From a virus (taxonomy: Duplodnaviria; Caudoviricetes), in the IMG/VR virus record IMGVR_UViG_3300027819_000009, positions 1-64,000 of that record: 64,000 bases of DNA. One strand, given 5' to 3'. Position numbers and translations under genes: made by a program. This document shows positions 21,472 to 60,312 of this stretch, piece after piece. Positions within the stretch are counted from its first letter, which is position 1, and every line of letters begins with the position of its first letter. The notes under the pieces are model-generated. The model was not told the origin of the DNA. It did no database searches and saw nothing but the letters and a program-made list of their open reading frames with translations.

Positions 21472-22314
21472 TTAAAGCTCCATGTTGTTTCCGTAGTATT
21501 TATCGAAAAGATCCCTTGTTTTGATTTTTACAGCCTCATCGTATGTGTACATCTTCTTCCCTAAAGTGTTTTTTCTCTTTTCATATAAAGAAGTTGAACT
21601 TGGGTGTTCGTATATGTACTCTTTTATAGCATCAGCAAACATGCGCTCAGAGAATTGTCCCTTAACTCGTTTAACCATGCGATAAACATCCACATGAAAA
21701 TATTTGTTTCCTATCCGGAATTGATGGTTCACCAATTTTTCAACAATCGAGAAGATTTCGTATTCCGATTTAAGCATCTCCTTACAGTCTAAAATTGAGT
21801 CTAGCTGATAATGGTAAGAAACGATCTTAGCATTCTGTCTGAGGATTTTTGAGAATCTTCCAATCGACTGGAAATGAATAACCAAGTCGCAATTTCTGTG
21901 ACGCACCGTACACAATTTACCAATCACCTCGTCTTTTAAATTATCACCCAAAATGGATGACATATCCTCAATTAGAATTGTGCCGCCCCTGAACTCCGTC
22001 AGTGTTCTTATAAGAAGTTTTTCAGTCTCTTCCGGCGACATAGGCATCCCGTTCGGATGGAACGGGGCAATTCTTCTTACCTCAACTTTAGCTTGCTGTC
22101 CGAAAGCAATTATTCCGTTGTGAGGTATGGCTTGGATCCTATGTTTTACTCCGTCGATTTCATATTCTGCGTACTCATTTTGACTATCAAAGAGAAGTGT
22201 TTTGTTTTTATGCGGAGAAACGTAAGCTCCGTACAGTGCCGCTTTTAACGAACTGTATGACTTTCCAATTTCCTGGGCTCCACTTCGAATAAGAATTAAC
22301 CTTCCTCTTGCCAT
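21472..22314 (-). CDS. A32/FtsK-HerA-type genome-packaging ATPase
   Basis: N-terminal Walker A GAQEIGKS, Walker B ILIEDM, and RH...hhhhQ (VRHRNCDLVIHFQ); no nuclease domain. Confidence 0.75.
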   Translation of the reverse strand: MARGRLILIRSGAQEIGKSYSSLKAALYGAYVSPHKNKTLLFDSQNEYAEYEIDGVKHRIQAIPHNGIIAFGQQAKVEVRRIAPFHPNGMPMSPEETEKLLIRTLTEFRGGTILIEDMSSILGDNLKDEVIGKLCTVRHRNCDLVIHFQSIGRFSKILRQNAKIVSYHYQLDSILDCKEMLKSEYEIFSIVEKLVNHQFRIGNKYFHVDVYRMVKRVKGQFSERMFADAIKEYIYEHPSSTSLYEKRKNTLGKKMYTYDEAVKIKTRDLFDKYYGNNMEL

Positions 22315-45683: not shown

Positions 45684-46373
45684 ATGAAAAAAAGAAACAC
45701 GCCAGTAAACCCTCATAATGAGTGGTTCTCGGCAAATGGAGATCAAGATTGGAACAGTGCAGATGAGTGGAGAGGTGCTGATTCTAGTTGGGACGCAAAT
45801 GGCGGAGATCGCCAAGCAGTGCAAACACACTCAAGCGCACCTTACATTTTACAAATTGTTAACGCATGTACAAGTGCAATAGCAGATGTAGATATTGGAG
45901 ATGCAGCAAGAAACCGCACAAGCGCAACGTTCAACCTAAACTCGAACATCACAGTTACATCAACTGTGCAGGGTATTAACTACCTTGAGTATTTGGCTAT
46001 GTCAGAATCTCAACCGTTTTTAGTAGGTGCAACGATGATTATTTCAACAAGCGCCGGGCAACTGGATCAGACTGTTAAAATAACTCACCGTAATCCTTCT
46101 GGGGACGACTGGGGCCACGTAATTACGCCCACCCTCACTTTGAACCAAAACCAAACGGATCGTGTAATTGATGACTATGAGTATCTTATGACATCAATGA
46201 CTCGTTTGAGATGGAACCAAATCAATGCATCTGCGACAGTAACTTGTCGTCAGTACTTGAAAGGCAAATTTGCAGCAAATCAAATTTTAGTTGGACGTCC
46301 TGCTTTGCAGGGTTACGGACAGCCGAATGTTGTGGCAAATGCTAAAGGTATCCAAACGTTGATTCGCGGTTAA
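45684..46373 (+). CDS. Candidate major capsid protein 1 (beta-rich, single-jelly-roll sized)
   Basis: First large gene of the virion module; alternating beta pattern; codon usage differs from neighbours; followed by a terminator. Confidence 0.6.
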   Translation: MKKRNTPVNPHNEWFSANGDQDWNSADEWRGADSSWDANGGDRQAVQTHSSAPYILQIVNACTSAIADVDIGDAARNRTSATFNLNSNITVTSTVQGINYLEYLAMSESQPFLVGATMIISTSAGQLDQTVKITHRNPSGDDWGHVITPTLTLNQNQTDRVIDDYEYLMTSMTRLRWNQINASATVTCRQYLKGKFAANQILVGRPALQGYGQPNVVANAKGIQTLIRG

Positions 46374-46395
46374 TTTAGTAGCGATTATTTAATTT

Positions 46396-46432
46396 AAAAG
46401 GGCAGGCATCTGTATGTTCTGCTCTTTTTTTT
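46396..46432 (+). terminator. Rho-independent terminator after capsid candidate 1
   Basis: agggcaggcat / atgttctgctct followed by a T-run. Confidence 0.6.
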
Positions 46433-46462
46433 AAACTAAACGATTTAATTCCATTTCGCCAG

Positions 46463-47077
46463 ATGAACAACACAGAATTTTTTAACAACGAGTCGTCCCA
46501 AAATAGGGATATTTGGCGTTATGCGAATGGTAGTAATATTTCAAAGGAAGATTTAATTAAAGGGCCGGCGCCTTTTATTTTTCAGATTGTAAACGATCAG
46601 TCTGCTCCGGAGCCAGCGATAGCAGATGTGGATATTGGGGATGCTGCGAGAAACAGAACAAGTGCAACGTTCAATTTAAATTCACACATTACAGTTACAT
46701 CAGCGGTTCAGGGCATTAATTACAGAGAGTTTTTAGCCATATCAGAGAATAGTCCATTCTTGGTAGGTGCAATTATGATTATTTCAACAAGTGCAGGTCA
46801 GCTTGACCAAACTGTTAAAATAACTCATAGAAACGCAAGCGGAGATGAGGTTGGACACGTTATCTCGCCAACGATTACATTAAATCAAAGACAGACGGAT
46901 AGAGTGGCGGATGATTATGAGTTTATGTTTGATTCTCTTACTAGAATTAGATTTAACCAGATTAATGCCGGTGCAACTGTTACGATAAGGATTTATCCTA
47001 AAGAGATTTATTCTTCTGCGGATTTATTAGCGAGAAGAGGTGAAATTGAAAGATTTGGCAAACCAAGACTTTATTAA
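46463..47077 (+). CDS. Candidate capsid protein 2, paralog of 45684-46373
   Basis: 99/122 identical residues over the IADVD...ATVT core (manual alignment). Confidence 0.6.
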   Translation: MNNTEFFNNESSQNRDIWRYANGSNISKEDLIKGPAPFIFQIVNDQSAPEPAIADVDIGDAARNRTSATFNLNSHITVTSAVQGINYREFLAISENSPFLVGAIMIISTSAGQLDQTVKITHRNASGDEVGHVISPTITLNQRQTDRVADDYEFMFDSLTRIRFNQINAGATVTIRIYPKEIYSSADLLARRGEIERFGKPRLY

Positions 47078-47221
47078 ATGACAGATAAAGAAATTGAAAT
47101 ATCGGAAAAACAACATGCTGAAGTAATTCGGCAGATGAAAATAAGCAATATCACAAGTGGTATTATTGCCACAGCTTCTTTATTTACATTGATTACAATT
47201 TTTGTAAAACTTACAAAATGA
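47078..47221 (+). CDS. 47-aa tail-anchored protein
   Basis: C-terminal TM; coupled to both neighbours. Confidence 0.55.
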   Translation: MTDKEIEISEKQHAEVIRQMKISNITSGIIATASLFTLITIFVKLTK

Positions 47222-47691
47222 TTTATTTAAAACATAATCTACAGCAGAATATAGCGAGTGCGAATAGCACGAAGGATCCTGCTATGCGTGAGGATATTGT
47301 TTTATCTGAGATAGGCAAGCGGATTGCTGTTCGGCCGGAGGTTGTTATTGGGTTTTTAAAAAAATCAGATATTAATGTTTCTGATACGGCATCTACTGGC
47401 AAGATGGTTAGTCTTGTTTCAAAGAACATTGGTAAAAACAAAAACCTAATTGTTTTATTTGCTAAAGATATTGGGGCGGGAGAAGGCTCGGAGTTAATGG
47501 CGAAGTCTATTTATGAGGTTTTTAAAAAGCCAGGAGCGGAGAGTGAATTAATGAAATACACTAAGGCGATTAAGGGAATAGCTCTTAGCGCTGATGGCGG
47601 GGACGATATTAAATGGGGGGCGAGGGTTGCTGTTGGGATTGTTGTTGTTTTAGGGATAGGATTTGCAGTTTATAAATATAAGAATGGGTAA
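47218..47691 (+). CDS. Virion membrane protein (C-terminal TM)
   Basis: SADGG motif before the TM. Confidence 0.7.
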   Translation: MIYLKHNLQQNIASANSTKDPAMREDIVLSEIGKRIAVRPEVVIGFLKKSDINVSDTASTGKMVSLVSKNIGKNKNLIVLFAKDIGAGEGSELMAKSIYEVFKKPGAESELMKYTKAIKGIALSADGGDDIKWGARVAVGIVVVLGIGFAVYKYKNG

Positions 47692-47935
47692 GAGTTTGGA
47701 TGATAAAAAATTAGAGGAGGCTGTGCAGGCGATGTATAGCGGGAGCCTTGGGGCGAAGATTAAGAAAAACTCGTCGTATGTGATTACGGGGATGTTTATA
47801 GGGGGGGTTGCTGGGCTAATGATTGCAAGTTTTATGGGTAAGAGTAAATTGTGGGGTGCGGTGATTGGGGCGGGAGTTTCGGGAATTGGAGGATATATAG
47901 TTTCGAATAATACTAAAAATAAAGAAGATGAGTAA
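47684..47935 (+). CDS. Gly-zipper membrane protein
   Basis: GGVAG...GAVIGAGVSGIGG. Confidence 0.7.
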   Translation: MGKSLDDKKLEEAVQAMYSGSLGAKIKKNSSYVITGMFIGGVAGLMIASFMGKSKLWGAVIGAGVSGIGGYIVSNNTKNKEDE

Positions 47936-48278
47936 CACAGCAGAAGAAGTAATGGAAAAGGCTGGAACTAATCAGCACACCGGATCGTATGGTAATACGA
48001 AAGGCAAATCTGCTAATTCTCTTTATAAGAGTTATAAAACGTTCGTTACAGATAGGGGACAGAAACCGCTAGATTTTACTCCTTGGTTAAAATGGGCAAA
48101 GGCTAAAGGTATTGTTCCGGCTAATGTAAGTGAGAAAGAAGAGTTTAAGGCTGATGCGGAAAACAATAATACTAATGTTACTACAGATTCTATTCCTACT
48201 TGGAAAATTGCGGTTGGAGTTGTGTTGGTGGTTGGCATAGGAGTGGCTATTTATATGAATTATAAAAAACCTTCATAA
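47928..48278 (+). CDS. Virion membrane protein (C-terminal TM)
   Basis: WKIAVGVVLVVGIGVAIY. Confidence 0.7.
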   Translation: MSNTAEEVMEKAGTNQHTGSYGNTKGKSANSLYKSYKTFVTDRGQKPLDFTPWLKWAKAKGIVPANVSEKEEFKADAENNNTNVTTDSIPTWKIAVGVVLVVGIGVAIYMNYKKPS

Positions 48279-48282
48279 AAAA

Positions 48283-49068
48283 ATGAAATTCGGAGTTGCG
48301 AGAAAATACGGAGACCAGCAGATTATAATTCCTGTTCGCACAAGGAGCAAGGAGAGGATTGTTGTTAGGATATCGCATCCAACTAAACCTAATACGGTTT
48401 ATTTCGATATTGCTCCAATTATAAACGGGGAAGATGTTATTGTGGCGAAGATACCAAAGATGCCGGAAACGGTAATAATGGAGGTTTATAACGAGGCTAA
48501 TGGGCATACAGATAAGGATGGCTCGTTCCAAATTAAAGAACCGAGGATAATGCCTATTATTCAGGGCTTTGCAGTTAAGCGATTGATGGATCCGAATGTT
48601 AATCGGTTTGCTATGTTCTTGGATGATTTTGCGGAGAATGCGGCGATTATTTCGGCACAGAATAGTATTTATAGGAGTCCGGACGGAAAATTTGAGATTC
48701 ATTATAAGGATGTTATTCGGGATGATAAAGGAAATGAATTAAGGACGCCATTGCGTGTGAATAGTAAAAGCAAGATAATGGAGATTGCAAAAAAATACTA
48801 CATTACCTATACTGTTCCTGGGCGTAAGATGTGGGCTTGGCATGAGTTTGCTCATGTTTGGATAAACAATAATCCGGCAGATGAACTTGAGGCTGATAAG
48901 CATGCTATAAAAATTTACTTGGGTTATGGAAATCCAATCGCAGAGGCTTATAATGTGGTGTTGAAGGTTTTTAAGAATACGCCGTCGGATTTAAATAAGC
49001 AGAGATACTTGGCACTAAACGATTATATAAAGAATTTTAACAAAGAAATGACTAAAAACTTATCATAA
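48283..49068 (+). CDS. Zincin metallopeptidase, candidate virion maturation protease
   Basis: HEFAH followed by ELEADKHA (HEXXH...ExxAD). Confidence 0.7.
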   Translation: MKFGVARKYGDQQIIIPVRTRSKERIVVRISHPTKPNTVYFDIAPIINGEDVIVAKIPKMPETVIMEVYNEANGHTDKDGSFQIKEPRIMPIIQGFAVKRLMDPNVNRFAMFLDDFAENAAIISAQNSIYRSPDGKFEIHYKDVIRDDKGNELRTPLRVNSKSKIMEIAKKYYITYTVPGRKMWAWHEFAHVWINNNPADELEADKHAIKIYLGYGNPIAEAYNVVLKVFKNTPSDLNKQRYLALNDYIKNFNKEMTKNLS

Positions 49069-49078
49069 ACTAAAAAAC

Positions 49079-49408
49079 ATGAATAAAGTAGCAATTGGAG
49101 CATCATTATTACTAGCATTTGGTATAGGGTATGCCATAGCGAGTAGAAACAAAATCCCAGAAGGGATAGTTGTTGATTACATTAATAAGAAAAACAGAAC
49201 GTTTGATGTGTTCGTTAACTATGGCGGACAGGTTTCTTATGCTGATGAGGCGAAATGGGATCAGATTCACATCCTAACGCCGATTAATGATAACGGAAAG
49301 TATTCTTTTGGTATTGATTATGAAGGAAACAAAACGTATATAACAATTAAAGAAAGATTAACTGGAAAAGTTATTCAAGAAAAAGTTATTGATTGGGATA
49401 AAGTTTAA
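49079..49408 (+). CDS. Membrane protein (N-terminal TM)
   Basis: Hydrophobic N-terminus. Confidence 0.65.
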   Translation: MNKVAIGASLLLAFGIGYAIASRNKIPEGIVVDYINKKNRTFDVFVNYGGQVSYADEAKWDQIHILTPINDNGKYSFGIDYEGNKTYITIKERLTGKVIQEKVIDWDKV

Positions 49409-49419
49409 AAACTAATATT

Positions 49420-49911
49420 ATGGAAAAAGGAGCGAAAATAGCATTAGTGGTTGGTGGGATTGTTGTTGCCATATGTGCAGCAATAGGAATATACTATGCC
49501 ACAAGGCCTAAAGATACAACATCTGGAAATACCGGTGGTGGTTCTGGTGATGGAAGCGGAAGTGGCGGAACTGGACTGAATTTAAACATAGACCAGATAA
49601 AAGATGTTCTTGGCCAATTTGCTCAAGCGACAAAAGAGAAGTTTCCCTTCCGGATTGGTATGTACGGGCCGAATATAAAAGCTATGCAGACGGCGTTAAA
49701 GAATAAGTTCGGGCAGGATTTGAAAACTGATGGTATTTTTGGAGTTAAAACATTTAATGCTTTGAAAAAGACTGGTTATGCTACTCTTTTGGAGAATACT
49801 ATAAATGACGAGAAGTTTTTAGATATCATTGATGGTAAAAAGATAACAGGCTTTTCGGCGAATGGCGCGAAGAATGTATTAATGCCATCTGGTAATTATA
49901 TGCCGATTTAA
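49420..49911 (+). CDS. Membrane protein with a peptidoglycan-binding-like domain
   Basis: N-terminal TM, Gly linker, GMYGPNIKAMQTAL...DGIFGVKTFNAL. Confidence 0.7.
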   Translation: MEKGAKIALVVGGIVVAICAAIGIYYATRPKDTTSGNTGGGSGDGSGSGGTGLNLNIDQIKDVLGQFAQATKEKFPFRIGMYGPNIKAMQTALKNKFGQDLKTDGIFGVKTFNALKKTGYATLLENTINDEKFLDIIDGKKITGFSANGAKNVLMPSGNYMPI

Positions 49912-49923
49912 AAATAAGAAATT

Positions 49924-50370
49924 ATGACAAAAGGACAAGTTGTATTATTAACAGGAGGGGCATTGGCTACAATAGCTATTGTTTACTTCGGCTTCATTAA
50001 GGAAGATGCCGCAGGGCTTACTTGGCTTGAGAGACTTAAGTTAGGTAATGAGGGTGATGCGATTGGTGGCGGAAGTGAAACTCAAAAAGAAAACTTTGAA
50101 AAACTGCTTGTTAATACTGGATTAAAACCAACAGGAAAGGATTCTGGCGGTAAAGATGTTTTAACGATTAAATTTAACGGGGATAAAAACGTGGCAGATT
50201 TTTATACTAATAGTAGGGTTTGGATTTATATGCTTTCTCCTACGGGGGCGAAGTCTACTCCTCGCAAGGCAACTTATAGCGATGGGGGTAAAACTTTTTT
50301 AATGGATAAGGACGGAAGTCAAATAACAAAAAGCAGTGTTTTTGCAACTTTACTAGAGGCGATAAAATAA
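49924..50370 (+). CDS. Membrane protein (N-terminal TM)
   Basis: Hydrophobic N-terminus similar to that of 54892. Confidence 0.65.
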   Translation: MTKGQVVLLTGGALATIAIVYFGFIKEDAAGLTWLERLKLGNEGDAIGGGSETQKENFEKLLVNTGLKPTGKDSGGKDVLTIKFNGDKNVADFYTNSRVWIYMLSPTGAKSTPRKATYSDGGKTFLMDKDGSQITKSSVFATLLEAIK

Positions 50371-50371
50371 A

Positions 50372-50872
50372 ATGGCAGATTTAGTTATACCATATAATTC
50401 ACAACCTGACTATGATGAATGGGGGTCGGACACGTTTTGGCCTTTAGCGACATGGGTTGCTTGGCATAGGGGACTAGTGAAAAAATACGGCAGGTCTTTA
50501 AATCCTGGCGGATATCCTTTTGCGGATGCTATTTGGTTGAATGCGTGGAGTAAGCAGAGTTACGGAGCGAGTCCTTTACTAGCAATTGGTCAGCCGAGTA
50601 GATTTAAAGAGGAGACGGATTATTTAAAGAAGTTTCCTTTGCTGTACGAATACACAGGATTAAAAAAGCATGAAACAGGAATAAATCCTATTGATGCTAC
50701 ATATAAGCTGATTCAGAAATCAGCGACGGCTTTGCAGGATTTGGGAGAGGGAGTTACGGATACGATTTCCGGAGTTGGATCTGGACTTAGCGTTTTAAAG
50801 TATGCGATTCCTGTTGTTCTTGTGATTGTAATAGGAACGGGTTTATACATTGGTTACAAAAAATTAGCGTAA
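50372..50872 (+). CDS. Virion membrane protein (C-terminal TM)
   Basis: YAIPVVLVIVIGTGLYIGYKK. Confidence 0.7.
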   Translation: MADLVIPYNSQPDYDEWGSDTFWPLATWVAWHRGLVKKYGRSLNPGGYPFADAIWLNAWSKQSYGASPLLAIGQPSRFKEETDYLKKFPLLYEYTGLKKHETGINPIDATYKLIQKSATALQDLGEGVTDTISGVGSGLSVLKYAIPVVLVIVIGTGLYIGYKKLA

Positions 50873-51612
50873 TGGCAGACATTAAATATATAATTCCTTT
50901 TACTTATAAGTGGGAGGGCGGTTTAAGTAGAGCAACAACAGACTCGGCTTCGAAAAACCCTGCCAATATAAGTCCATACACTATTAATGGTCAAACTGGC
51001 TGGCATACAAATAAGGGAATTACTTATTCGGTATTTAAAGCCGGAGCATCTAAGTATGGGTATCAAGATACTTTAAATAATTGGAAAGATATGCCACACG
51101 ATATTTGGTTAAAAATAACTAAGAGTGGGTATTGGGATAGATTAAAACTTGACACCTATAATAGCCAGCCCGTAGCAAATGTAATGTTTTCATGGGTTTG
51201 GGGATCTGGATTAGCATGGCAACCAAGAATGGAGAGATATTTAAAAACGAAAGGTATTAATTGGGCTCGTAATAATTTTGGAGACTTGGCTACAAATTTA
51301 AATGGCCTAGTTACAAAAGATGGGGAGAAAAAAATATTTGATGAGTTGGTTGAGCAGAAAAAACAGTTTTTACTATCCTTAAAGGGAACAGACTCTAATC
51401 CAGTAACTGATGCAAAGCCTCAAGGGGTTTATACAGATGGGTGGATGAATAGACTTAGGGATTTACAGACGTATAGTTATACTCTGCTTAGTAAAACGAT
51501 TACGGATATAGGCGAGGGTTTAAAGAACAACAGTGGAAAGATAATAGTGTTTTTTTTTGCTTTCTCGATTATAGCGGGGGGAATAGTTTTATATAATAAT
51601 GCGAAAAGTTAA
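50872..51612 (+). CDS. GH108 lysozyme-like protein with a C-terminal membrane anchor
   Basis: WEGG...TNKGIT...YW...VMFSWVWGSG; C-terminal TM. Confidence 0.8.
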   Translation: MADIKYIIPFTYKWEGGLSRATTDSASKNPANISPYTINGQTGWHTNKGITYSVFKAGASKYGYQDTLNNWKDMPHDIWLKITKSGYWDRLKLDTYNSQPVANVMFSWVWGSGLAWQPRMERYLKTKGINWARNNFGDLATNLNGLVTKDGEKKIFDELVEQKKQFLLSLKGTDSNPVTDAKPQGVYTDGWMNRLRDLQTYSYTLLSKTITDIGEGLKNNSGKIIVFFFAFSIIAGGIVLYNNAKS

Positions 51613-51617
51613 ATAAA

Positions 51618-52355
51618 ATGGCAGAATCAAATAATAACAGACAGTACTTTAACAGCGAGGCTTCGAAAAATCGGGATACTTGGAAGTATGCTGATGCCGG
51701 TACTGAGCGAACTCTAAGGATTGGTAATGTAAGGACAAACCTATATGCCACAGGAAAGTTTGATGATGTGCTACGTGCTGAAAAATGGCATAATGCAGAT
51801 AGCGAGTCGGAAAACGAAGATTCAGTTGAGTATGAAAACGAACTTCCCGAAGAGGAATTTACAGAGGAGGAACTTCCGAAATTTCGTCATTTAGTTCGTG
51901 CAAAGAAATTAGAATATAAGGCGCAATACGGAAAGGCTCATTTACAAACAAAAACGGCTTATAAGAAAGTTTGTTTAGGCGGATGGGTAGATATTAAGGG
52001 AGACGGTAAGGGGCCTATATGGAAATCGGATATTAATTGCACGAATATTCCTTATCCACAAATCACATGGGTTTGGGGATGGAGAAAAAAGTGGAGAGAG
52101 TTTAAACAGGCTGGTGGATTAGCACAGTTAAAAATGCAATCTAAAGGAACGGCACCAATACCAGGATACGTGCCTGATGCTAATGCGGGAAATGGAAGTG
52201 GAACTGGGACTGGCACAGGAACAGGAAACAAGCCACCAAAACCAGATATTACGCTTGATTTACCTGAAAAACAAGAGGCATCAATGGTTACTAATGTAGT
52301 TGGTGGCATTTTAGTTGTTGGGCTTTTAATTGGAATATTTAAAACTTTAAAATAG
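51618..52355 (+). CDS. Virion membrane protein (C-terminal TM)
   Basis: N-terminal leader resembles capsid candidate 2; GT-rich linker. Confidence 0.7.
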   Translation: MAESNNNRQYFNSEASKNRDTWKYADAGTERTLRIGNVRTNLYATGKFDDVLRAEKWHNADSESENEDSVEYENELPEEEFTEEELPKFRHLVRAKKLEYKAQYGKAHLQTKTAYKKVCLGGWVDIKGDGKGPIWKSDINCTNIPYPQITWVWGWRKKWREFKQAGGLAQLKMQSKGTAPIPGYVPDANAGNGSGTGTGTGTGNKPPKPDITLDLPEKQEASMVTNVVGGILVVGLLIGIFKTLK

Positions 52356-52361
52356 AAAAAA

Positions 52362-52928
52362 ATGGTAAACAAATTCAGTATATTAAAATTTGATGATGCC
52401 GTAGTGGCATCGTATCATTCGGCAGATGGGCCAGTCCCAGAGGAATTTAATTTATCAAAATACAATGGCGTGTTAGGTCAAGGATACACAGACTCTAATC
52501 TTGTGTTTTTAATTGATAATACTTACTTGCCAGAAGTAAACGGGTTAATACAACAGTATAAAGAGAAGAAGATGGTATTGGGCTCTAGTCCACAAAATAG
52601 CTTTTTAAAACAACAATATGCTGATTATATAGCAACTATGTCGCAGGTTAAGAGTGAGTTGACTATTATAAGAAATGCTGCAAAAGGTAGGATTCAATAT
52701 GCTGTTGATCACCCACAGTCTGTTATTGGAGAGGGGACAGATCTTGGGCAGGTAAATCTTAATTTTGGTAGCCCCAAAACAGATGGTGGTAAGGGAAGGA
52801 ATGTTGGCGAGACGGTTAATGTTGATTTAAATTTACCAAAAACACAAAAAGCATCGCTTACAGGGAATATAATCGGAACAGTCCTTATTTTAGGATTAGT
52901 TTTCGGAGCAATAAAATTTATGAAATAA
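52362..52928 (+). CDS. Virion membrane protein (C-terminal TM)
   Basis: SADG motif; tail homologous to 51618. Confidence 0.7.
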   Translation: MVNKFSILKFDDAVVASYHSADGPVPEEFNLSKYNGVLGQGYTDSNLVFLIDNTYLPEVNGLIQQYKEKKMVLGSSPQNSFLKQQYADYIATMSQVKSELTIIRNAAKGRIQYAVDHPQSVIGEGTDLGQVNLNFGSPKTDGGKGRNVGETVNVDLNLPKTQKASLTGNIIGTVLILGLVFGAIKFMK

Positions 52929-52935
52929 AAACATT

Positions 52936-53340
52936 ATGCCAGGAACATTAGAAAATCCATCAGGAAACACAGGAAGGGGATCTGCTCCAACATCTGAACA
53001 GTATGCTCAGTGGGCGCAACAGTCTGCTGCTCTTGCGGCTCAAATCGCAGAGGCTAAAAATAAGAGAGATGCTTTAATGGCTCAGACGGGATGTAAAAAG
53101 CCGTTAATAATGGCTGGTAAAAAGAAAAAAGCGTATTTGGCATGTTTGGAGAATTACAAAGCAAAAGTTGAGGCAGCAAAACAAGCGGATAGAGATTTGG
53201 TTCGTATGCAACTGGAAATGAGAAGGCTTGATGCTCTGCAAAATAAAGGCTTAAGTACCGGCGCATGGATAGCGATATCGGTTGGTGCAGCATTGTTAAT
53301 TACCGGAGTTGTGGTATTGGTAGTAAAATTAAAAAAATAA
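52936..53340 (+). CDS. Helical virion membrane protein (C-terminal TM)
   Basis: GLSTGAWIAISVGAALLITGVVVLVV. Confidence 0.7.
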   Translation: MPGTLENPSGNTGRGSAPTSEQYAQWAQQSAALAAQIAEAKNKRDALMAQTGCKKPLIMAGKKKKAYLACLENYKAKVEAAKQADRDLVRMQLEMRRLDALQNKGLSTGAWIAISVGAALLITGVVVLVVKLKK

Positions 53341-53344
53341 AATT

Positions 53345-54526
53345 ATGACAACAGAAGAACGCAGAATTAAAATACTTGAAAAGCGACTAAGGCTTTTAGG
53401 TGAGTATCTTGAGAGATTCTCTGATGGCGATGGGCCATCATTTGCCGAGTTTGCAAAATCGAAAGATATTACTTATGAGATGTTTGTTAAAGACTTGCCT
53501 CCTGGATTTGAGAATGTTCCGGCGAGTGGATACGATAATGTTTTAGAATATGCCCTACAGCTAAATGAGCTTCTTAACGGACAGCGTAACCTTTCCGAAA
53601 TGGAGGAGATAGCGGCTGATGGAAACAACCTTGAAAGAGGAGTAACTGACTATTATGGGCAGTATATCAGAGAGGATTGCGGATGTGGTGGTGGTAGTGA
53701 AGATGATAATAGTGCTAGTGCTGACGGGGATGAATTTTCGGCAGCAGGATGTGGTTTGCCTCCAGTTCCGCCTCCGTTTCCAAATCCTAAAAAGACAAAT
53801 AATGCCATTACTAGAGCGGCGAGAAAATCATGGGATAAGTATAAAGAAAAACATGCTAAATACAGAAGGTGTGTGAACGCTCAAAAAGAAAAGAGAAAAG
53901 GATATTCTCTTAACGATAAGGCATCTCACGCTCTGCATCTTTCAAATCCATCAGAGGCTATCGGACGGGTGGCGTTTTTAAAACTAATAGCATTAAATAT
54001 TTTTGGATTAGCTCAGACTTATGAAAGAATGAGAAGTCATCCGAATCAAACCCATTGGGACAGAATGAAAAAATTATGGTACAGGCTCGGTGGATCGGAG
54101 GTAAAATTAGATAAAAACATAAGCATTGGAAGAGGAAAAAAGCCTATATTTAGACCGAAAGGATGGAAACCAAAACCATTAAATGCGGATGGGGGGATTT
54201 ACTCGGCGGATGGTGGTGTTTGGCATAATGCTTACGATGGGATTGCTATCGGTGGAATGATTACTGCGGCCACTGGATTGATTGGATCTGTTGCTCCGAT
54301 TATAAAATCCTTCAAAAAGGATAACGCAGAGCCCGATGCCGACACTTATGACCCTTTAAATCCAGACATGAGGCTTCCTGAAGACACCGAACTCCCAGAT
54401 GATACCGGAGTTGATGGAGATGGGCTAACCACTAATCAATGGATTGGAATATCGGCAGGGGTAGCTGTGGTTCTTGGGGTTATTATATTTGCAGGATATA
54501 AAATGAGTAAAGAAATAATAAATTAA
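53345..54526 (+). CDS. Large virion membrane protein with multiple ADG motifs
   Basis: AADG, SADG, NADG, SADG; C-terminal TM. Confidence 0.75.
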   Translation: MTTEERRIKILEKRLRLLGEYLERFSDGDGPSFAEFAKSKDITYEMFVKDLPPGFENVPASGYDNVLEYALQLNELLNGQRNLSEMEEIAADGNNLERGVTDYYGQYIREDCGCGGGSEDDNSASADGDEFSAAGCGLPPVPPPFPNPKKTNNAITRAARKSWDKYKEKHAKYRRCVNAQKEKRKGYSLNDKASHALHLSNPSEAIGRVAFLKLIALNIFGLAQTYERMRSHPNQTHWDRMKKLWYRLGGSEVKLDKNISIGRGKKPIFRPKGWKPKPLNADGGIYSADGGVWHNAYDGIAIGGMITAATGLIGSVAPIIKSFKKDNAEPDADTYDPLNPDMRLPEDTELPDDTGVDGDGLTTNQWIGISAGVAVVLGVIIFAGYKMSKEIIN

Positions 54527-54570
54527 ACATCAATAAATAAAGGTAATTATATATTTATTGATACAAAAAA

Positions 54571-54867
54571 ATGAGAAAGCTAATTAGAAATATAAAATAT
54601 GGGTTAGATTTCCGTAAAACAGCTAATAACTTGCGGAAAATAATCGAAGCCACTTTTATTACAGAATTTAAAATTACTAATCCTAAAATAAAGGTTAATT
54701 TTCGGTTTGGGTACGCACAATATTTTTATAGACCATCTGTGTGGTTTGGAACAAGGCAAATTGGTATTATAAGGGAAGATTACCAAGATTCTGGGTGGGT
54801 TTCTTCATTTTATACAATAAAACAGTATTTAGAACTGAAGAAAAAATTAGTATCAACAAATATATAG
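54571..54867 (+). CDS. Hypothetical protein
   Basis: 98-aa ORF. Confidence 0.5.
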   Translation: MRKLIRNIKYGLDFRKTANNLRKIIEATFITEFKITNPKIKVNFRFGYAQYFYRPSVWFGTRQIGIIREDYQDSGWVSSFYTIKQYLELKKKLVSTNI

Positions 54868-54891
54868 TTACCTAAATAAAAAACAAATAAT

Positions 54892-55242
54892 ATGGAAAAA
54901 GGAATGAAAATAGGGTTAGGGATTGGTGGAGCCGCCCTTGCTATCGCTGTAATTTACTTTGGTTTTACAGAAAAGGGTAAACAACAATGGTCTGTAATGT
55001 TTGACCCAACAAAAGGAGGTACAAATGTTCCGCCAAGAACAGGAACAGCCGAAGATGGGGGCAAGAGCAGAGATGTTGGTGCGGATGGGTTAAATACACG
55101 CATAAGAAAAGGATCAGGTTCTGTCGGTTCTGGAAAGTGGATTATTAAAGGTGATATGATAGGAAAATCATGTCCGTCTGGTCAATATCCAATATATCTA
55201 GAGGGAGAGAAAAAATGGGTTTGTGCCATATCTGATAGATAA
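54892..55242 (+). CDS. Membrane protein (N-terminal TM)
   Basis: GADG motif; C-terminal Cys pair. Confidence 0.65.
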   Translation: MEKGMKIGLGIGGAALAIAVIYFGFTEKGKQQWSVMFDPTKGGTNVPPRTGTAEDGGKSRDVGADGLNTRIRKGSGSVGSGKWIIKGDMIGKSCPSGQYPIYLEGEKKWVCAISDR

Positions 55243-55306
55243 TTTATAATCTTTTATAATAAAGTTGTATTTTTGAGGCTTTAAACCTATTAATACAATC
55301 TCTATC

Positions 55307-56038
55307 ATGGCGGAAGTAAAAAACAATGTCTTTGCTGATAAACTAGCGGGGCTTAAATTAGATTATGAAGATTATGGGCGTTTACCGATGCGAATGGATG
55401 TCCAAGCTCTTGTTGCACCAGATGGTAAAAACACAGCAGATGTTGTTTCGCAATTTGATAAACTTCAGTACATAAGAGAGCATTTAAAAAAGATTGATGA
55501 TTACATTAAGGCAAAAACGAATGTTCCTATTAATGAGTGGAGTGCAAAGAATAACAAAAATCTAAGCACTAAAGTTCTTTCAAAGCTAAAAGGTCATACT
55601 AACGAAACTGGAGGTATTTCAAAATACTTTCATGATTTACAAACTATTTATGACTCCGAAGAGGCTCTTTATGATAAAATGGAGGCCGACTGCAAATCGG
55701 ACGAGGCATCAAATAAGATGTTTTACGGAATGCGGGCGGATAGGGATGAGAAGAGAAAAACAAGATCCGCAGAGAGAAAACTTTTAGTAAAGGATTTAAA
55801 GAAAGACGGGAAGGGATTCTTGTTTGTTGAAGTTGAGGAAGCGCCGGTTGCGAAAGAGGAAGTGAAAAAAGAAGAGAAGGAAAATGAACATGCTGCCGAT
55901 GGGGATTCGAAGGAGAAAATTGAAAAGGAAGTTGATAAGATACAAAAGACCACAAAGAACGTGGGGATTTACATTGCCGGCTTTACAATACTGCTTACTG
56001 CGGTTATAGTTGTAGCCTCGGCAACAAAAGAAAAATAA
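55307..56038 (+). CDS. Virion membrane protein (C-terminal TM)
   Basis: AADG motif; TATTTTTG promoter at 55268-55275. Confidence 0.7.
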   Translation: MAEVKNNVFADKLAGLKLDYEDYGRLPMRMDVQALVAPDGKNTADVVSQFDKLQYIREHLKKIDDYIKAKTNVPINEWSAKNNKNLSTKVLSKLKGHTNETGGISKYFHDLQTIYDSEEALYDKMEADCKSDEASNKMFYGMRADRDEKRKTRSAERKLLVKDLKKDGKGFLFVEVEEAPVAKEEVKKEEKENEHAADGDSKEKIEKEVDKIQKTTKNVGIYIAGFTILLTAVIVVASATKEK

Positions 56039-56039
56039 A

Positions 56040-56579
56040 ATGAGCAGAGTTTGGAGAAATATAGCGGCTGTAGGTGTGGCAATAGTAGTGCCACTTGGCT
56101 TCTATGCATACTTTTCAGTTAAACTTCTAACTCAAATCGCTGTTAGTGTTTTTAGTATAAAAATTAAAAGTGTAGGGGCGGGATTTATTGATTTAGTGCT
56201 TACTCTTCGAGTTGAGAATCCCGCAAATGTAGGGGTTTCTATTGAGGGGTATGATATGAAAATAAAGATTAACGGGGCAGATGTGGCTGATATAAAAAAC
56301 ACAACTAGTAAAAAACTCGAATCGAAGGCCGTATCTTACCTTGATATTCCGATTACAATAAAATATCCAGAGTTTGCTAGTAAGGTAAAATTTAATGAAA
56401 TACTTCAGTACTTATTACTGAGTAAATTTGAGAAAATTTCGTTAACTTTGGATGGCGCCATTTTAGGATCCGTTGCTAAAGTTCCGGTTGCTACAAGTAT
56501 AAAGGCTACTCTTACAATGCGGGACATAATGGATAAGAAGGATCCGAAATTTGATATTGGTAAAATAAAGTTTTTTTAA
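56040..56579 (+). CDS. LEA_2/WHy-domain protein with N-terminal TM
   Basis: LTLRVENPANVGVSIEGYDMKIKING. Confidence 0.75.
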   Translation: MSRVWRNIAAVGVAIVVPLGFYAYFSVKLLTQIAVSVFSIKIKSVGAGFIDLVLTLRVENPANVGVSIEGYDMKIKINGADVADIKNTTSKKLESKAVSYLDIPITIKYPEFASKVKFNEILQYLLLSKFEKISLTLDGAILGSVAKVPVATSIKATLTMRDIMDKKDPKFDIGKIKFF

Positions 56580-56581
56580 TT

Positions 56582-56986
56582 ATGGGATTTATAGACAACA
56601 AAGTAAAAAAGACATTTGAAAAGATTTTTAAAGGCGTTGCAAAAGAAATCAACTGCGATGTATCTGAGGTAAAAATTGGAATCGTTTATAAAGACGGTCA
56701 GATTGTTTACGAGGCTTATAGGGGGAATGAAAAAGAAAAGGACATTAAACTATCTGACTATTTAAATATGTTTGACTCTGCTCCACATGTAATTGAGGCA
56801 ACAATAGGACAAGCGAGCGGAAGATATGCCTCAGAGGTTGCTACAAAGTTAAACAAGGAAGTGCATCCGAATGATGTAAGTATAATTTTTAAAGATGTCC
56901 CAGGAGAAATTCCACGTGCTGTTTTAATGGCATTCGGACAAAAACAAAGAGAAATTGATGTAAAAACAGAATTTTCACAAAGTTAA
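56582..56986 (+). CDS. Hypothetical protein
   Basis: ORF in the virion operon. Confidence 0.65.
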   Translation: MGFIDNKVKKTFEKIFKGVAKEINCDVSEVKIGIVYKDGQIVYEAYRGNEKEKDIKLSDYLNMFDSAPHVIEATIGQASGRYASEVATKLNKEVHPNDVSIIFKDVPGEIPRAVLMAFGQKQREIDVKTEFSQS

Positions 56987-56998
56987 AAAAATAAAAAG

Positions 56999-57361
56999 AT
57001 GCCGAGTCAGATACCTATTATATTTTTCAACAGGGAGGTTACCAACACCCTTGTTTTAGTTGCTTCAGGAAGGGTTACTCTTGTTGGATGGTTGCTATCG
57101 AATCATAGCACTGCCGCTTATTTAAAACTTTATAATGCAGCAGCAATAACAGATGTTGCGCTGGCATCAACTGTTCCTAATAAAATTCTACCAATACCAA
57201 CAGGGCCTGGAGGATTATTTTTTCTTAGTAATGAGGATAAGTTTCAACAGAATTTTAATTTAGGTTTGGTTATAGCTGTTGTTTCTACACTAACCGAATC
57301 TGCAACGGCACCGGCACAAGCATGTAGCGTGGAGTTGTCTTACGATAATATTAGTCAATAG
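56999..57361 (+). CDS. Small beta-rich vertex/penton-like protein
   Basis: LVGWLLSN...AYLKLYNA...ILPIP pattern; directly precedes the spike. Confidence 0.45.
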   Translation: MPSQIPIIFFNREVTNTLVLVASGRVTLVGWLLSNHSTAAYLKLYNAAAITDVALASTVPNKILPIPTGPGGLFFLSNEDKFQQNFNLGLVIAVVSTLTESATAPAQACSVELSYDNISQ

Positions 57362-57367
57362 AAAGAT

Positions 57368-58654
57368 ATGGGATCATTCGCAACTAGCAACCCCACAGGG
57401 GGATCAGATATAACAGGAAGCGGAACGGCCAATCAAGTTGCTGTTTTTGCATCGGCATCATCTATAGGAAATCCTACTATTTCATTTACGTCTAGTGCAA
57501 CTGGCTTTACTATAGGCTCGCTTACGGCAGAGCCGGCTGGAATACTTACACTTACATCTATTACACAGGGGTTTATTCCTCCAAGACTTACGTCAGCACA
57601 AAGAAATGCAATGCCGGCGGTTCTAGTTGGGATGTCTATATTTAACACAACAAGAGATACAATTGATATTTATACAGAAGGTGGCGGGGTTCCAGCTTGG
57701 GCATCACTGATTACATCTACGATGTATCCAACGGCGTTTACTGTTGGTGCGCTTTTAATGGCCAATACAACAACCACTATCACCACATTATCTGCTGGGG
57801 CGGGAGTCGGTTCGTATTTAAGGTCGGCTGGAGCGGCAACAGAGTTGGTGTGGAGCGTTTTAACACTTCCTAACGCCGCTACCGTAGGAGATATTTTTTA
57901 CTCAGATACGACTAATGTAATGGGTAGGCTTGCCTCTGGGGCAACGGCTGGAATGTTTTTAAGAAACGTAGGGGCATCAACGGCTCCGGTATGGAGTACG
58001 CTTATACTTCCGAATGCTGCAACAGCTAATCAAATAGTTTATGCTTCAGCCACCAACACATACGGAGGCACAACAACGTTTTTATTTAACGGCACATCGT
58101 TTTTAGTAGGTACAGCGACTCAAATAGGCGCAGGAAATATTTGTGACTTTTTTAGAAATCAGAATGGCGCAACGTCTGTGTGGACTACTAATAATACATC
58201 GGGAACTGCCGCTTTTGCTATGAATGCAGTAACGGCGGATAATGGGACAACCAATACAAGTATGCGCTCATTAAGCGCAGGTTATACTACGTCAGGAATG
58301 CTTGTGGCTAGTACTGGTGTTGTATTAACAACCTGTACTGCCGGAATGAACCTTGGTACTTTTTCTAACACACAATTGTCTTTTTGGACAAATAATACAC
58401 AACAATGGAGCATAACATCCGGCGGCATATTAACGGCTGTGGATGCTAAAGATATAGCGTTTGGAACCACAACAGGAACAAAAATAGGCACAGCGACATC
58501 GCAAAAATTAGCTTTTTATAACGCCACGCCTATTGTTCAGGGGGCAAGCATAGCGGATGCTTCTGGTGGGGCAATTATAGATGCCGAGGCAAGGACGGCT
58601 ATAAACGCTCTTATATCAAGAATCGAGGCAACTGGACTTATAGCAACGGTTTAA
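57368..58654 (+). CDS. Spike/fibre protein (Thr/Gly/Ala-rich, repeated)
   Basis: Repeated LPNAAT.G.(I/L)(F/L).../..W S.L.LPNAA fibre units. Confidence 0.75.
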   Translation: MGSFATSNPTGGSDITGSGTANQVAVFASASSIGNPTISFTSSATGFTIGSLTAEPAGILTLTSITQGFIPPRLTSAQRNAMPAVLVGMSIFNTTRDTIDIYTEGGGVPAWASLITSTMYPTAFTVGALLMANTTTTITTLSAGAGVGSYLRSAGAATELVWSVLTLPNAATVGDIFYSDTTNVMGRLASGATAGMFLRNVGASTAPVWSTLILPNAATANQIVYASATNTYGGTTTFLFNGTSFLVGTATQIGAGNICDFFRNQNGATSVWTTNNTSGTAAFAMNAVTADNGTTNTSMRSLSAGYTTSGMLVASTGVVLTTCTAGMNLGTFSNTQLSFWTNNTQQWSITSGGILTAVDAKDIAFGTTTGTKIGTATSQKLAFYNATPIVQGASIADASGGAIIDAEARTAINALISRIEATGLIATV

Positions 58655-58680
58655 AAATAATAAAATGTGCAAAACTAATT

Positions 58681-59889
58681 ATGGCAATAGGATTTATAAG
58701 ATCTACACCCGTTAATATTCCATTGCCTATTGGTAATCTAATTAATGATTCATTTTCTGGCGCAGCATTAAGCTCCAACTGGACAGCAACAAATCCAAAT
58801 ACTACAATTACAGTTAGTGGGGGGGATTTGCTTTTAAATAGGTCGGTTGGAGGCGGATATCAGCTTAATAGCGATTACTTATTATACACTGGATATGGTG
58901 GGACTTGTCTTGAGGATTGGACAATTACAGTTCCTTTTAAAATAACAGAAACAAGCGCAACGAGTACCGGCTTTGCTATTGGTGTTAAGTCGACTGCAAA
59001 TTGGTATTCTAACTATTGGTATCTAGTTCAGTTTAACACAAATAGTGGCGCTGGAAATAAAAAGCTGTATTTTTATATGGCTGGCGCAACAACCGCCACT
59101 ACAATATCCTCAACGGCACTAACGGCAGCACTAAATGATGAGTGTACTCTTACTGTTACTAGGTCGGCAGATACCACAAATGGACAAAAAATAACAGCTA
59201 CAGTTACAAATTTAACTAATCCCAACAGCGTAAGCCACTCCTATACATTTACAGAGGCGTATCAGATTACTGTCGGATCGCCACCCACATGCTACTTCGC
59301 TATTTTCCCATTCGTTGGGCAAATAACGCTTCACTCCTTTACAGTTAGCACAGCTTATTATAAAAACTGCAATATAATTACAAGGGGAGATAGTATAACT
59401 AGGGGTGTTTATGCTTTATCCTACACGAACAGATGGACTACTTTATTCTTTGGAAGCTCTCTTAAAAAAAACTATTCGTGTGGTGGCCCAGGAGACAGAA
59501 CAACATCTGTACTGGACAATATACCGGAATTGCTTTTATTTAAGCCTAAGTTTGTTGTTTTAATGATTGGAGGGAACGACCTAGCTGGCGGCGTGGCAAT
59601 AGGCACAGTGCAGACCAATTACCAAAGTATAGTAACTCAGCTTATAGCCGGCGGTATCACAGTGTGGCATTGTATGACTCCGCCGAGAAATGGTTATGAT
59701 TATACAACGTGGAACAGCTGGTTAAGCTCAACTTATTTAAATGTAGTCAACACATTTACTAATTTAAAAGCTGCTGTTGGAACTGGATTAAATGCCGCAT
59801 ACAATAGCGGAGATGGAACACATGAAAACACAGCTGGCCACGCATTAATAGCATCCGACTGCACATCATCTATAGGAAGTTTAGTATAA
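58681..59889 (+). CDS. SGNH/GDSL hydrolase with an N-terminal beta (lectin-like) domain
   Basis: GDSIT, GGPG, GGNDL, DGTH. Confidence 0.88.
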   Translation: MAIGFIRSTPVNIPLPIGNLINDSFSGAALSSNWTATNPNTTITVSGGDLLLNRSVGGGYQLNSDYLLYTGYGGTCLEDWTITVPFKITETSATSTGFAIGVKSTANWYSNYWYLVQFNTNSGAGNKKLYFYMAGATTATTISSTALTAALNDECTLTVTRSADTTNGQKITATVTNLTNPNSVSHSYTFTEAYQITVGSPPTCYFAIFPFVGQITLHSFTVSTAYYKNCNIITRGDSITRGVYALSYTNRWTTLFFGSSLKKNYSCGGPGDRTTSVLDNIPELLLFKPKFVVLMIGGNDLAGGVAIGTVQTNYQSIVTQLIAGGITVWHCMTPPRNGYDYTTWNSWLSSTYLNVVNTFTNLKAAVGTGLNAAYNSGDGTHENTAGHALIASDCTSSIGSLV

Positions 59890-59901
59890 AATAAATAAAT
59901 T

Positions 59902-60312
59902 ATGAGAAGAACTCGGCAAGGATTTGATACAGCGTTAAGAAACTCGACAAGGGGAGATGTTGAGGATTTAGCAGATAGTTTTTATAACTTACTCTCTGAT
60001 GGGGCGGTTCAGCCACTTACAGACGGAGCAACTATATCTTGGGACACAGAATCTGGCATGAATGCCTCAGTGACATTAACTGGAAACAGAGTATTATCAA
60101 TACTAAACCCATTAGCTGGTTGTTTTTATACAATACGAGTTTCGCAAGATTCAACCGGATCAAGAACACTCTCGCTCCCATCGCCAAGCAAGGTTGTTAA
60201 TGGTGGGGCTGGGGCAGTAACCCTTACCCCAACAGCCAATGCAATAGATATACTAACCGCATATTATGATGGGACTACGTATTATTGGACTTATGTATTA
60301 AACTTTACTTAA
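59902..60312 (+). CDS. Fibre/receptor-binding tip-type domain protein
   Basis: LTDGATISWD...QDSTGSRTL...T.TANAIDIL..YYDG. Confidence 0.65.
   Translation: MRRTRQGFDTALRNSTRGDVEDLADSFYNLLSDGAVQPLTDGATISWDTESGMNASVTLTGNRVLSILNPLAGCFYTIRVSQDSTGSRTLSLPSPSKVVNGGAGAVTLTPTANAIDILTAYYDGTTYYWTYVLNFT

Follow-up and report, generated by a model that had tools for sequence, protein, structure and literature searches.

A short amino-acid tag built around Ala-Asp/Asn-Gly recurs in the candidate particle proteins of an uncultured virus (IMG/VR record IMGVR_UViG_3300027819_000009), in genes at positions 45684-56038 of the stretch of DNA that we analyzed (the window, which is the first 64 kb of the single 74,657-bp contig making up the record). 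Our analyses confirm that the tag is a real linear motif, and that it is confined to the block of capsid and membrane-protein genes. Judging from its sequence context, it is most likely a cutting or docking signal for particle assembly. We favor, with a probability of roughly 40%, a reading in which the tag is recognized and cut by a virus-encoded zincin metallopeptidase, whose gene (48283-49068, + strand) lies in the middle of the same operon. Proteolytic maturation is essential for tailed phages and for the jelly-roll viruses of eukaryotes (adenoviruses, poxviruses, asfarviruses). To our knowledge, the prokaryotic jelly-roll viruses that contain a membrane, such as PRD1, PM2, P23-77 and similar viruses, are thought to assemble without it. 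A pairing of tag and protease in a widespread, uncultured lineage of bacterial viruses would change that picture.

The tag is a real linear motif of the capsid and membrane-protein block

The original prediction had listed about 19 copies or variants of the tag in ten named open reading frames (ORFs), all of which are present where it had placed them, and it had suggested a test for enrichment, in which the tag proved to be enriched over background. Across the 19 ORFs of 45684-56038 (3,353 aa), compared with 2,000 within-protein shuffles, A[DN]G was observed 13 times against 2.79 expected, [SNYG]A[DN]G 9 times against 0.70, SA[DN]G 6 times against 0.16, and W.[SYGN]A[DN] 6 times against 0.13, and none of the 2,000 shuffles matched the observed count for any of these four patterns. 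In the remaining 141 ORFs of the genome, the excess of A[DN]G was not significant (11 vs. 7.2 expected, p=0.11), and the fibre and spike genes that follow the block (56040-60312) contain zero copies. When all exact 3- and 4-mers were enumerated, with no pattern chosen beforehand, SADG was the top-ranked 4-mer (z about 10), and the words nearest to it in rank were only those typical of transmembrane (TM) segments and those common to the two capsid paralogues. Residue order is specific, as A[DN]G occurs 13 times and each of the other five orderings only one to three times. The excess also persists after shuffles within windows of 8-20 residues, so linker composition does not explain the tag.

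These results bear directly on the suspicion that the tag is a chance or compositional artefact of linkers rich in Ser, Ala, Asp and Gly. The pattern was indeed set loosely and after the fact, and some of the listed variants are weak; RADR in the 55307 product and FKADAE in the 47928 product, for example, are not worth counting. However, no global or local shuffle (1,000-2,000 of them) reached the observed count, and enrichment is found independently in four related lineages (L001, L004, L010 and L015, described below). Taken together, the global and local shuffles, the comparison of orderings and the unbiased k-mer enumeration rule out chance and composition, and we regard the probability of such an artefact as negligible. 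Not every strict match need be a functional copy: NEANG (nt 48490-48504) lies inside a well-folded beta-sandwich of the zincin and is probably not one.

Of eight related metagenomic lineages, seven carry the tag, and they do so at corresponding sites. Five of the relatives, L001 (from a 71.6-kb contig) and L002-L005, encode homologues of the capsid-like protein and are syntenic with the window, including a divergent glycosyltransferase block upstream. A[DN]G occurs 12 times in L001 against 2.1 expected, with SADG itself occurring eight times, and 11 times in L004 against 3.2 expected. Orthologous tag sites are kept inside otherwise gappy segments (IALSADG/IAMSADG; GFSANG/LSANG/QSADG; VGADG/LGADG/NNADG), and the motif columns have a conservation of 0.59 compared with 0.46 in flanks of +/-14 residues (one-sided p=0.009). 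At loci found through distant zincin homologues, the tag is also retained, chiefly in the capsid leader: FFSADGF and YSANGF in L012 (zincin 42% identical), FQHADGFF in L013 (35%), and FHNADGFF in L015 (26%), where A[DN]G is enriched (6 vs. 2.0, p=0.014). L010 (31%) has 6 instances of A[DN]G where, according to the kind of shuffle, 2.3-2.5 would be expected (p about 0.03). A logo of 55 A[DN]G instances from seven lineages shows Ser (23 of 55, 42%, 6.2-fold above background) or Asn at position -1, an aromatic residue at -3 or -2 in 30 of 55 (background 9%), Asp (37 of 55, 67%) or Asn (18 of 55, 33%) at +1, and Asp, Gly or Glu at +3. Since preferences are also seen at positions that the search pattern left free, the tag is about six or seven residues long, of the form aromatic/hydrophobic-x-[S/N]-A-[D/N]-G-[D/G/E].

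Two tagged proteins open the operon, capsid-like protein 1 (45684-46373, + strand, 229 aa) and capsid-like protein 2 (46463-47077, + strand, 204 aa). They are paralogues with 60% identity, and their family has 47 metagenomic homologues, none of them named, and 23 invariant columns. An AlphaFold2 (AF2) model of protein 2 (m947497b0c996; predicted local distance difference test score (pLDDT) 78) contains a beta-sandwich at aa 34-190. With modest Z values of 5-7, this sandwich is closest in fold to the PR772 penton protein and to viral single jelly-roll coat proteins. Fold, gene position and family size together suggest that both jelly-roll proteins have a capsid role. A Lys-Asp/Asn isopeptide link between tags and the capsid protein is unlikely, as no Lys is found among the invariant columns of the family.

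Among the 42 capsid-family members with a recognizable start of the core, 37 have leaders with one to six copies of the tag, and in 24 of those 37 the last copy ends 9-14 residues ahead of the jelly-roll core. Type-1 leaders have a basic N-terminus followed by a hexapeptide repeat, (W-x-S-A-D-G)n, in two to six copies; the leader of protein 1 (aa 1-52) is of this kind, with four tandem copies at nt 45726-45803 (FSANG, NSADE, RGADS, WDANG). Type-2 leaders consist of a conserved 23-residue module, NNxE[FY]FNxExxxNRDxWxxA[DN][GAS]. In the leader of protein 2 (aa 1-36), the tag WRYANG (nt 46517-46531) lies 13 residues ahead of the core, and in the AF2 model it sits at the end of the leader helix and adjoins the only stretch with a pLDDT<50 (aa 23-27, starting at G23, the final residue of the tag). 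Three paralogues (P0006, P0007 and P0009) have no leader and start a few residues upstream of the point where the spacer to the core would begin. The original prediction had also described the tag as often separating a leader or anchor from a domain, which fits the capsid leaders well, with their 9-14-residue spacing; for the membrane proteins, gappy alignments are the only indication of it.

The type-2 leader is not limited to capsid proteins. It aligns with the leader of the product of 51618-52355 as NNxxFFNxExSxNRDxWxYA[ND], with a local score of 81 compared with a maximum of 51 in 5,000 shuffles, and it is also present on the L005 orthologue of the 47218 product, indicating a portable module. 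The ten tagged proteins, which had been called otherwise unrelated, therefore include one pair of paralogues (the capsid candidates) and one pair that shares a leader (capsid candidate 2 and the 51618-52355 product). As a separate observation, a 370-aa late protein of L008 (L008:16265-17377) carries an N-terminal capsid-core signature, ITSRDANGNSR...LTVDPNQ, together with a long extension, and may be a vertex or second shell protein derived from a capsid gene.

The zincin and the virus that encodes it

The product of 48283-49068 (261 aa) is the only HEXXH protein in the genome (HEFAH at aa 187-191). Its mid-operon position had been noted in the original prediction, and the gene is present there in every relative whose contig extends to that point. 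It is the best-conserved protein of the block, being 85% identical to its orthologue in L004 (compared with a typical 45-60% for the block), 68% in L001 and 56% in L005. The family comprises 461 representative clusters at 50% identity, nearly all of about 260 aa. Across 67 homologues (25-59% identity), only P58, H187, E188, H191, E201, D205 and R241 are invariant, and H187, E188 and H191 are invariant in five close orthologues as well. E201 and D205 are located on a helix (201-214) that directly follows the HEXXH helix (178-194), and either is a possible third metal ligand.

In the AF2 model (pLDDT 94.5), aa 1-93 form a beta-sandwich, and the C-terminal domain is helical. The latter best matches BepA/YfgC of family M48 (Z 8.6, aa 122-254, 120 residues, root-mean-square deviation 4.2; VIA-align, 48,161 chains), followed by a putative Zn peptidase, 3c37 (Z 6.5), although these Z values are only moderately above the stated background of VIA-align. 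Foldseek returned no match at E<=0.001, so the M48 match comes from VIA-align only, and the structure neighbours in the ESM Atlas belong to M48, M78 and DUF4344. At the level of sequence, the window zincin has no Pfam match at E<=0.1 and no PHROG match at E<=0.01, and a profile of the family has no match among PDB sequences. Among the 67 members, sub-threshold Pfam matches were found to PhageMetallopep PF18894 (11 members, best E 0.0044), SprT-like (3) and M48 (2). The protein thus resembles M48 and minigluzincin peptidases (BepA/YfgC, HtpX, Ste24) and PhageMetallopep PF18894 in having HEXXH and a downstream acidic ligand. It differs from them in its unique N-terminal beta-sandwich, in lacking a TM segment and a TPR domain, in being encoded in a viral structural operon, and in matching no Pfam model at gathering score. 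The signature and the M48-like model fold mark it as a true zincin with predicted proteolytic activity, and its gene belongs to the core set of the virus group. The confidently modeled beta-sandwich (48283-48561) resembles carbohydrate-binding module (CBM) and GOLD domains (Z 7-8) and could be an exosite for docking to substrates or to the particle. Pfam and PHROG searches of the operon proteins gave no match to known maturation protease families (S77/S78/S80, C5, C63, C57).

The genome around the zincin is complete. An exact 104-bp repeat is present at both ends of the contig (window 1-104 = genome 74554-74657), which indicates a complete viral genome, circular or terminally redundant, of about 74,553 bp. 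On the + strand, 45684 to approximately 60300 form a single densely packed late operon, in which the two paralogous capsid-like proteins come first and are followed by about twenty small proteins. A TM-like segment, as defined by hydropathy, is found in 16 of 22 late proteins and is mostly C-terminal, as in tail-anchored proteins. Other products of the operon are a C-terminally anchored GH108 lysozyme, a protein with a peptidoglycan-binding-like domain, an LEA_2 protein, a fibre-like protein and a GDSL/SGNH esterase. We recognized no gene for a terminase, a portal or a tail in any part of the genome. Because of this, and because of the two paralogous jelly-roll proteins and the many TM-like segments, the virus is probably a tailless, membrane-lined bacterial virus with a jelly-roll shell, in agreement with the prokaryotic tailless virus that had been proposed. 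Its P-loop candidates are DnaB and one 280-aa protein only. The latter (21472-22314, - strand) is encoded outside the late operon, has a Walker A motif and a Zot match just under threshold (20.2 vs. 20.3 bits), and is weakly indicated as the sole candidate for a packaging ATPase of the tailless-virus type (FtsK/HerA, A32-like).

The region had no megablast match among 50,697 phage records, the zincin and capsid-like protein 1 had no tblastn match in the same set, 16 of 20 operon proteins had no match of any kind in Pfam or PHROGs, and we found no described virus group of this kind in the literature. Searches for related loci were likewise empty among viral contigs with the capsid-like protein or an alignment (A2) as the query, and among genome contigs with protein P0055 or the same alignment. 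The Helvetiavirae (P23-77, SH1, HHIV-2) are prokaryotic, membrane-containing viruses with two single jelly-roll capsid proteins. Like them and the PRD1-like viruses, this virus has a pair of neighbouring small proteins with a predicted jelly-roll fold, a long series of small membrane proteins and virion-associated lytic enzymes, and no recognizable terminase, portal or tail genes. Unlike them, its genome of about 75 kb is roughly 2-4 times larger and its putative shell proteins are close paralogues, and no sequence similarity to Helvetiavirae-like members was detected (PHROG, Pfam, and tblastn against the phage records). We know of no maturation protease in the Helvetiavirae or the PRD1-like families.

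Cleavage, docking and other readings of the tag

If the tag is a cleavage site, the zincin would trim the acidic, Trp-rich N-terminal leaders from both jelly-roll capsid proteins during assembly, would cut the multi-copy leaders into small peptides, and would take the portable leader off other virion proteins. In several tail-anchored proteins, it would also cut off the membrane anchor or a terminal tail. A membrane-containing jelly-roll virus would then undergo proteolytic maturation like that of T4, phiKZ or adenovirus, with a metalloprotease as the enzyme. We infer the pairing of zincin and tag, and the occurrence of cutting, from several observations. The tag is real, dependent on residue order and limited to the block of capsid and membrane-protein genes. 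Orthologues keep it at equivalent sites in gappy linkers, lineages with a zincin of only 26-42% identity have it too, and residue preferences extend to the free positions of the logo. Its placement is like that of a propeptide junction, considering the frequency of tagged leaders, their regular spacing to the core and the three leaderless members, and the same combination of leader and tag is found on unrelated proteins. Finally, a strongly conserved and otherwise unexplained zincin lies mid-operon in every relative that reaches that far.

A precedent for this arrangement also favors cleavage. The prohead protease of T4, gp21, cuts at L/I-x-E sites. Phages phiKZ and SPN3US have prohead proteases (gp175 and gp245) with sites of the S/A/G-x-E type, and in all three phages propeptides double as targeting signals; in SPN3US, the single protease has 14 mapped sites in nine head proteins, with a shared motif and several copies within single propeptides (PMC10052503). 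As in those three large myoviruses, the virus studied here has a single protease gene among its structural genes and a short motif shared by many unrelated candidate particle proteins, mostly at the ends of what may be N-terminal propeptides and sometimes in multiple copies. The differences are that theirs are serine proteases with an assemblin-like fold, in tailed phages with an HK97 fold and no membrane, while ours is an HEXXH zincin candidate. Moreover, the putative shell proteins here are small jelly rolls, many of the candidate substrates are membrane-anchored, the key residue is Asp/Asn rather than Glu, and cleavage is predicted only.

Adenain of adenovirus, pS273R of African swine fever virus (ASFV) and I7 of poxviruses are cysteine proteases that mature particles at sites containing Gly. 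These viruses have jelly-roll capsids, some of them membranous, and a short motif of small residues in several core or membrane-associated precursors, which is cut there, and in these features the virus in the window would resemble them. In contrast, their proteases are cysteine proteases of eukaryotic viruses with the core motifs GG-X, G-X-G and AG-X, and no homology to adenain, pS273R or I7 was detected among the operon proteins. By analogy, the system described here would work like the codes for maturation or targeting that large tailed phages, adenoviruses, poxviruses and asfarviruses use, without being one of them.

Several points weigh against cleavage. L008 has retained a zincin (27% identical) but shows no excess of the tag (A[DN]G 2 vs. 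3.4 expected), and the conserved role of the zincin therefore does not strictly need it. The strictly periodic Trp of the (W-x-S-A-D-G)n leaders resembles multivalent binding rather than a protease requirement, the spacing from motif to TM segment ranges from about 4 to 25 residues, and peptidases of the M48 type are, as far as we know, not noted for strict sequence specificity. N-anchored motifs, tail-anchored motifs and a soluble protease may not all share one compartment. With respect to co-occurrence, which had been suggested as a check, no relative keeps the motif without the protease and the converse is seen once (L008), but this has little weight because both are core features of the lineage.

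Some of the observations also fit an uncleaved docking or assembly motif, carried on flexible arms and tethers and binding one common partner, which we regard as the main alternative and as only somewhat less probable than cleavage. The partner could be, for example, the jelly-roll shell at its inner face, a membrane protein that serves as a hub, or the zincin's beta-sandwich, and the motif would recruit membrane proteins and capsid subunits to the particle under assembly. Multivalent binding is suggested by the tandem, strictly periodic copies (one to six) with conserved flanking aromatics in the capsid leaders. Proteins that are otherwise unrelated carry the tag at their termini or on juxtamembrane tethers, and a leader can be shared by different proteins. 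The fixed spacer from the last copy to the core fits a geometric constraint, and the retention of a zincin in L008 without tag enrichment also favors this reading. It is not obvious, however, why a shell protein should bear the same tag as its supposed cargo; a conserved mid-operon zincin is left without a role, and, as the leaderless capsid paralogues show, one or both of the shell proteins can do without a leader. Encapsulin cargo-loading peptides and the T4 capsid-targeting sequence are known short peptides that recruit proteins to a particle. Like them, the tag is short and conserved and lies on flexible terminal extensions of unrelated proteins whose genes neighbour the shell gene; it is dissimilar in that here the shell protein itself is tagged and many copies are internal or juxtamembrane, with binding being hypothetical.

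A structural or ion-binding role of the tag at the interface of capsid and membrane is unlikely; in this reading, interfacial aromatics and an Asp/Asn-Gly turn with acidic residues after it would bind divalent cations or lipid head groups and so glue the shell to the internal membrane. The interchange of D and N, as among oxygen ligands, agrees with this, as do the enrichment of acidic or small residues at +3 and of aromatics at -3/-2 and the location of tagged segments in capsid N-terminal arms and juxtamembrane stretches. Yet the distance from tag to TM segment is highly variable, some copies are far from any anchor (aa 89-135 of the 53345 product and aa 19-23 of the 52362 product), and no known Ca-binding signature was matched in Pfam searches. 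Still less probable, in our view, is a sequon for post-translational modification, for example glycosylation by enzymes of the neighbouring, divergent glycan-synthesis island. Such an island, rich in glycosyltransferases, does border the capsid genes on their upstream side, and relatives have retained it (GT2, GT11 and GT25 in L001, L004 and L005; GT2 and GT25 in L012; GT6 in the window), and repeated sequons are typical of glycoproteins. A sequon is disfavoured because the acceptor residue is not invariant: Ser at -1 and Asn at +1 are both minority choices, and only Ala and Gly are fixed. The likeliest exposed glycoproteins, those of the fibre and spike (57368-59889), also lack the tag, and L010 and L015 are tagged with no glycosyltransferase in the parts of their contigs that were read (both contigs being partial).

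Between the metalloprotease code and the docking or modification tag that had been offered as alternatives, then, the motif is real and conserved and the zincin is a core gene, modification is disfavoured, and docking has turned out to be about as viable. We put forward only tentatively the more specific form of the cleavage reading, namely that in a large, uncharacterised lineage of membrane-containing jelly-roll bacterial viruses a zinc metalloprotease reads aromatic-x-S/N-A-D/N-G, removes leaders and frees tail-anchored scaffold or tether proteins. If cleavage does occur, a maturation code read by a metalloprotease would be on record for the first time in a jelly-roll (non-HK97) virus of prokaryotes, as a convergent counterpart of adenovirus, poxvirus and asfarvirus maturation and with a protease class new to virion maturation. 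From such a code, the mature ends of more than ten orphan particle proteins could be predicted. Should the tag be a docking signal instead, it would be a compact and portable particle-targeting peptide with a possible use in cargo loading.

Other tag-bearing proteins and neighbouring genes

The remaining tagged proteins are all encoded on the + strand, and most are membrane-anchored. Upstream of the zincin are two tail-anchored proteins. The first (47218-47691, 157 aa) has LSADG at nt 47584-47598, four residues ahead of the first hydropathy window above threshold (aa 131-155), and a loose ASANS near its N-terminus (nt 47254-47268); its orthologues have IAMSADG (L004), KELSADG (L005) and, at the N-terminal site, NIMSADG (L001). 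The second (47928-48278, 116 aa) has the variant FKADA (nt 48144-48158) upstream of its TM segment, where orthologues have SQSADGDG (L001), NYGADA (L004) and FRSADGT (L015). Downstream of the zincin, an N-anchored protein with the peptidoglycan-binding-like domain (49420-49911, 163 aa) carries FSANG (nt 49852-49866) 14 residues from its C-terminus, in a column aligned with LSANG in L004 and QSADG in L001. The tail-anchored protein that shares the leader of capsid-like protein 2 (51618-52355, 245 aa) has KYADA at the end of that leader (nt 51684-51698) and then HNADS (nt 51789-51803), and its orthologues have WTNADGE (L004) and HYGADGE (L001).

Another tail-anchored protein (52362-52928, 188 aa) has YHSADG near its N-terminus (nt 52416-52430). 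The largest membrane protein of the block (53345-54526, 393 aa) contains five copies, IAADG at nt 53609-53623, ASADG and FSAAG at nt 53714-53749, and LNADG and YSADG at nt 54179-54214, with SADG or NADGG retained in orthologues at aligned sites. In a small N-anchored protein (54892-55242, 116 aa), VGADG is located at nt 55075-55089, and [GN]ADG is retained in three of three orthologues inside a region that is otherwise 20% conserved. The last of the series is a tail-anchored protein (55307-56038, 243 aa) with HAADG (nt 55889-55903) about 17 residues ahead of its TM segment; L001 has KSADGE a few residues off, and L004 has no copy at this site.

The glycosyltransferase and sugar-nucleotide block (24015-45216, - strand) encodes GT2, GT6, GT11 and GT25 enzymes, a GDP-mannose-dehydratase-like epimerase and methyltransferases. 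It is transcribed divergently from the capsid genes and is kept upstream of them in L001-L005 and L012. Toward the end of the late operon, a fibre-like protein rich in Thr, Ser and Ala (57368-58654) is followed by a 402-aa protein (58681-59889) with a C-terminal GDSL/SGNH esterase domain (E 6e-16), which is probably a receptor-destroying (deacetylating) spike. A small structural-operon protein (79-102 aa) has a precomputed Pfam SET-domain match in L001 (L001:17506-17745) and L004 (L004:17728-17994), while the 98-aa protein at the same position in the window (54571-54867) has no Pfam match and no BLAST match to them.

At the position of the lysozyme, a tail-anchored GH108 enzyme is encoded in the window (50872-51612) and also in L001, and a GH19-like enzyme is encoded at the same operon position in L002 (L002:14449-15207) and L004 (L004:14403-15191). 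Similarity between the two kinds of enzyme is limited to the C-terminal anchor region, and the exchange looks like a swap of catalytic domains on a conserved membrane anchor. The window also encodes a tyrosine integrase (5690-6874). The L013 operon (GCA_040384185.1, contig JAWVGY010000050.1, 136631-157419) is located inside a 223.5-kb assembly contig, which indicates that at least some members of the group are integrated proviruses.

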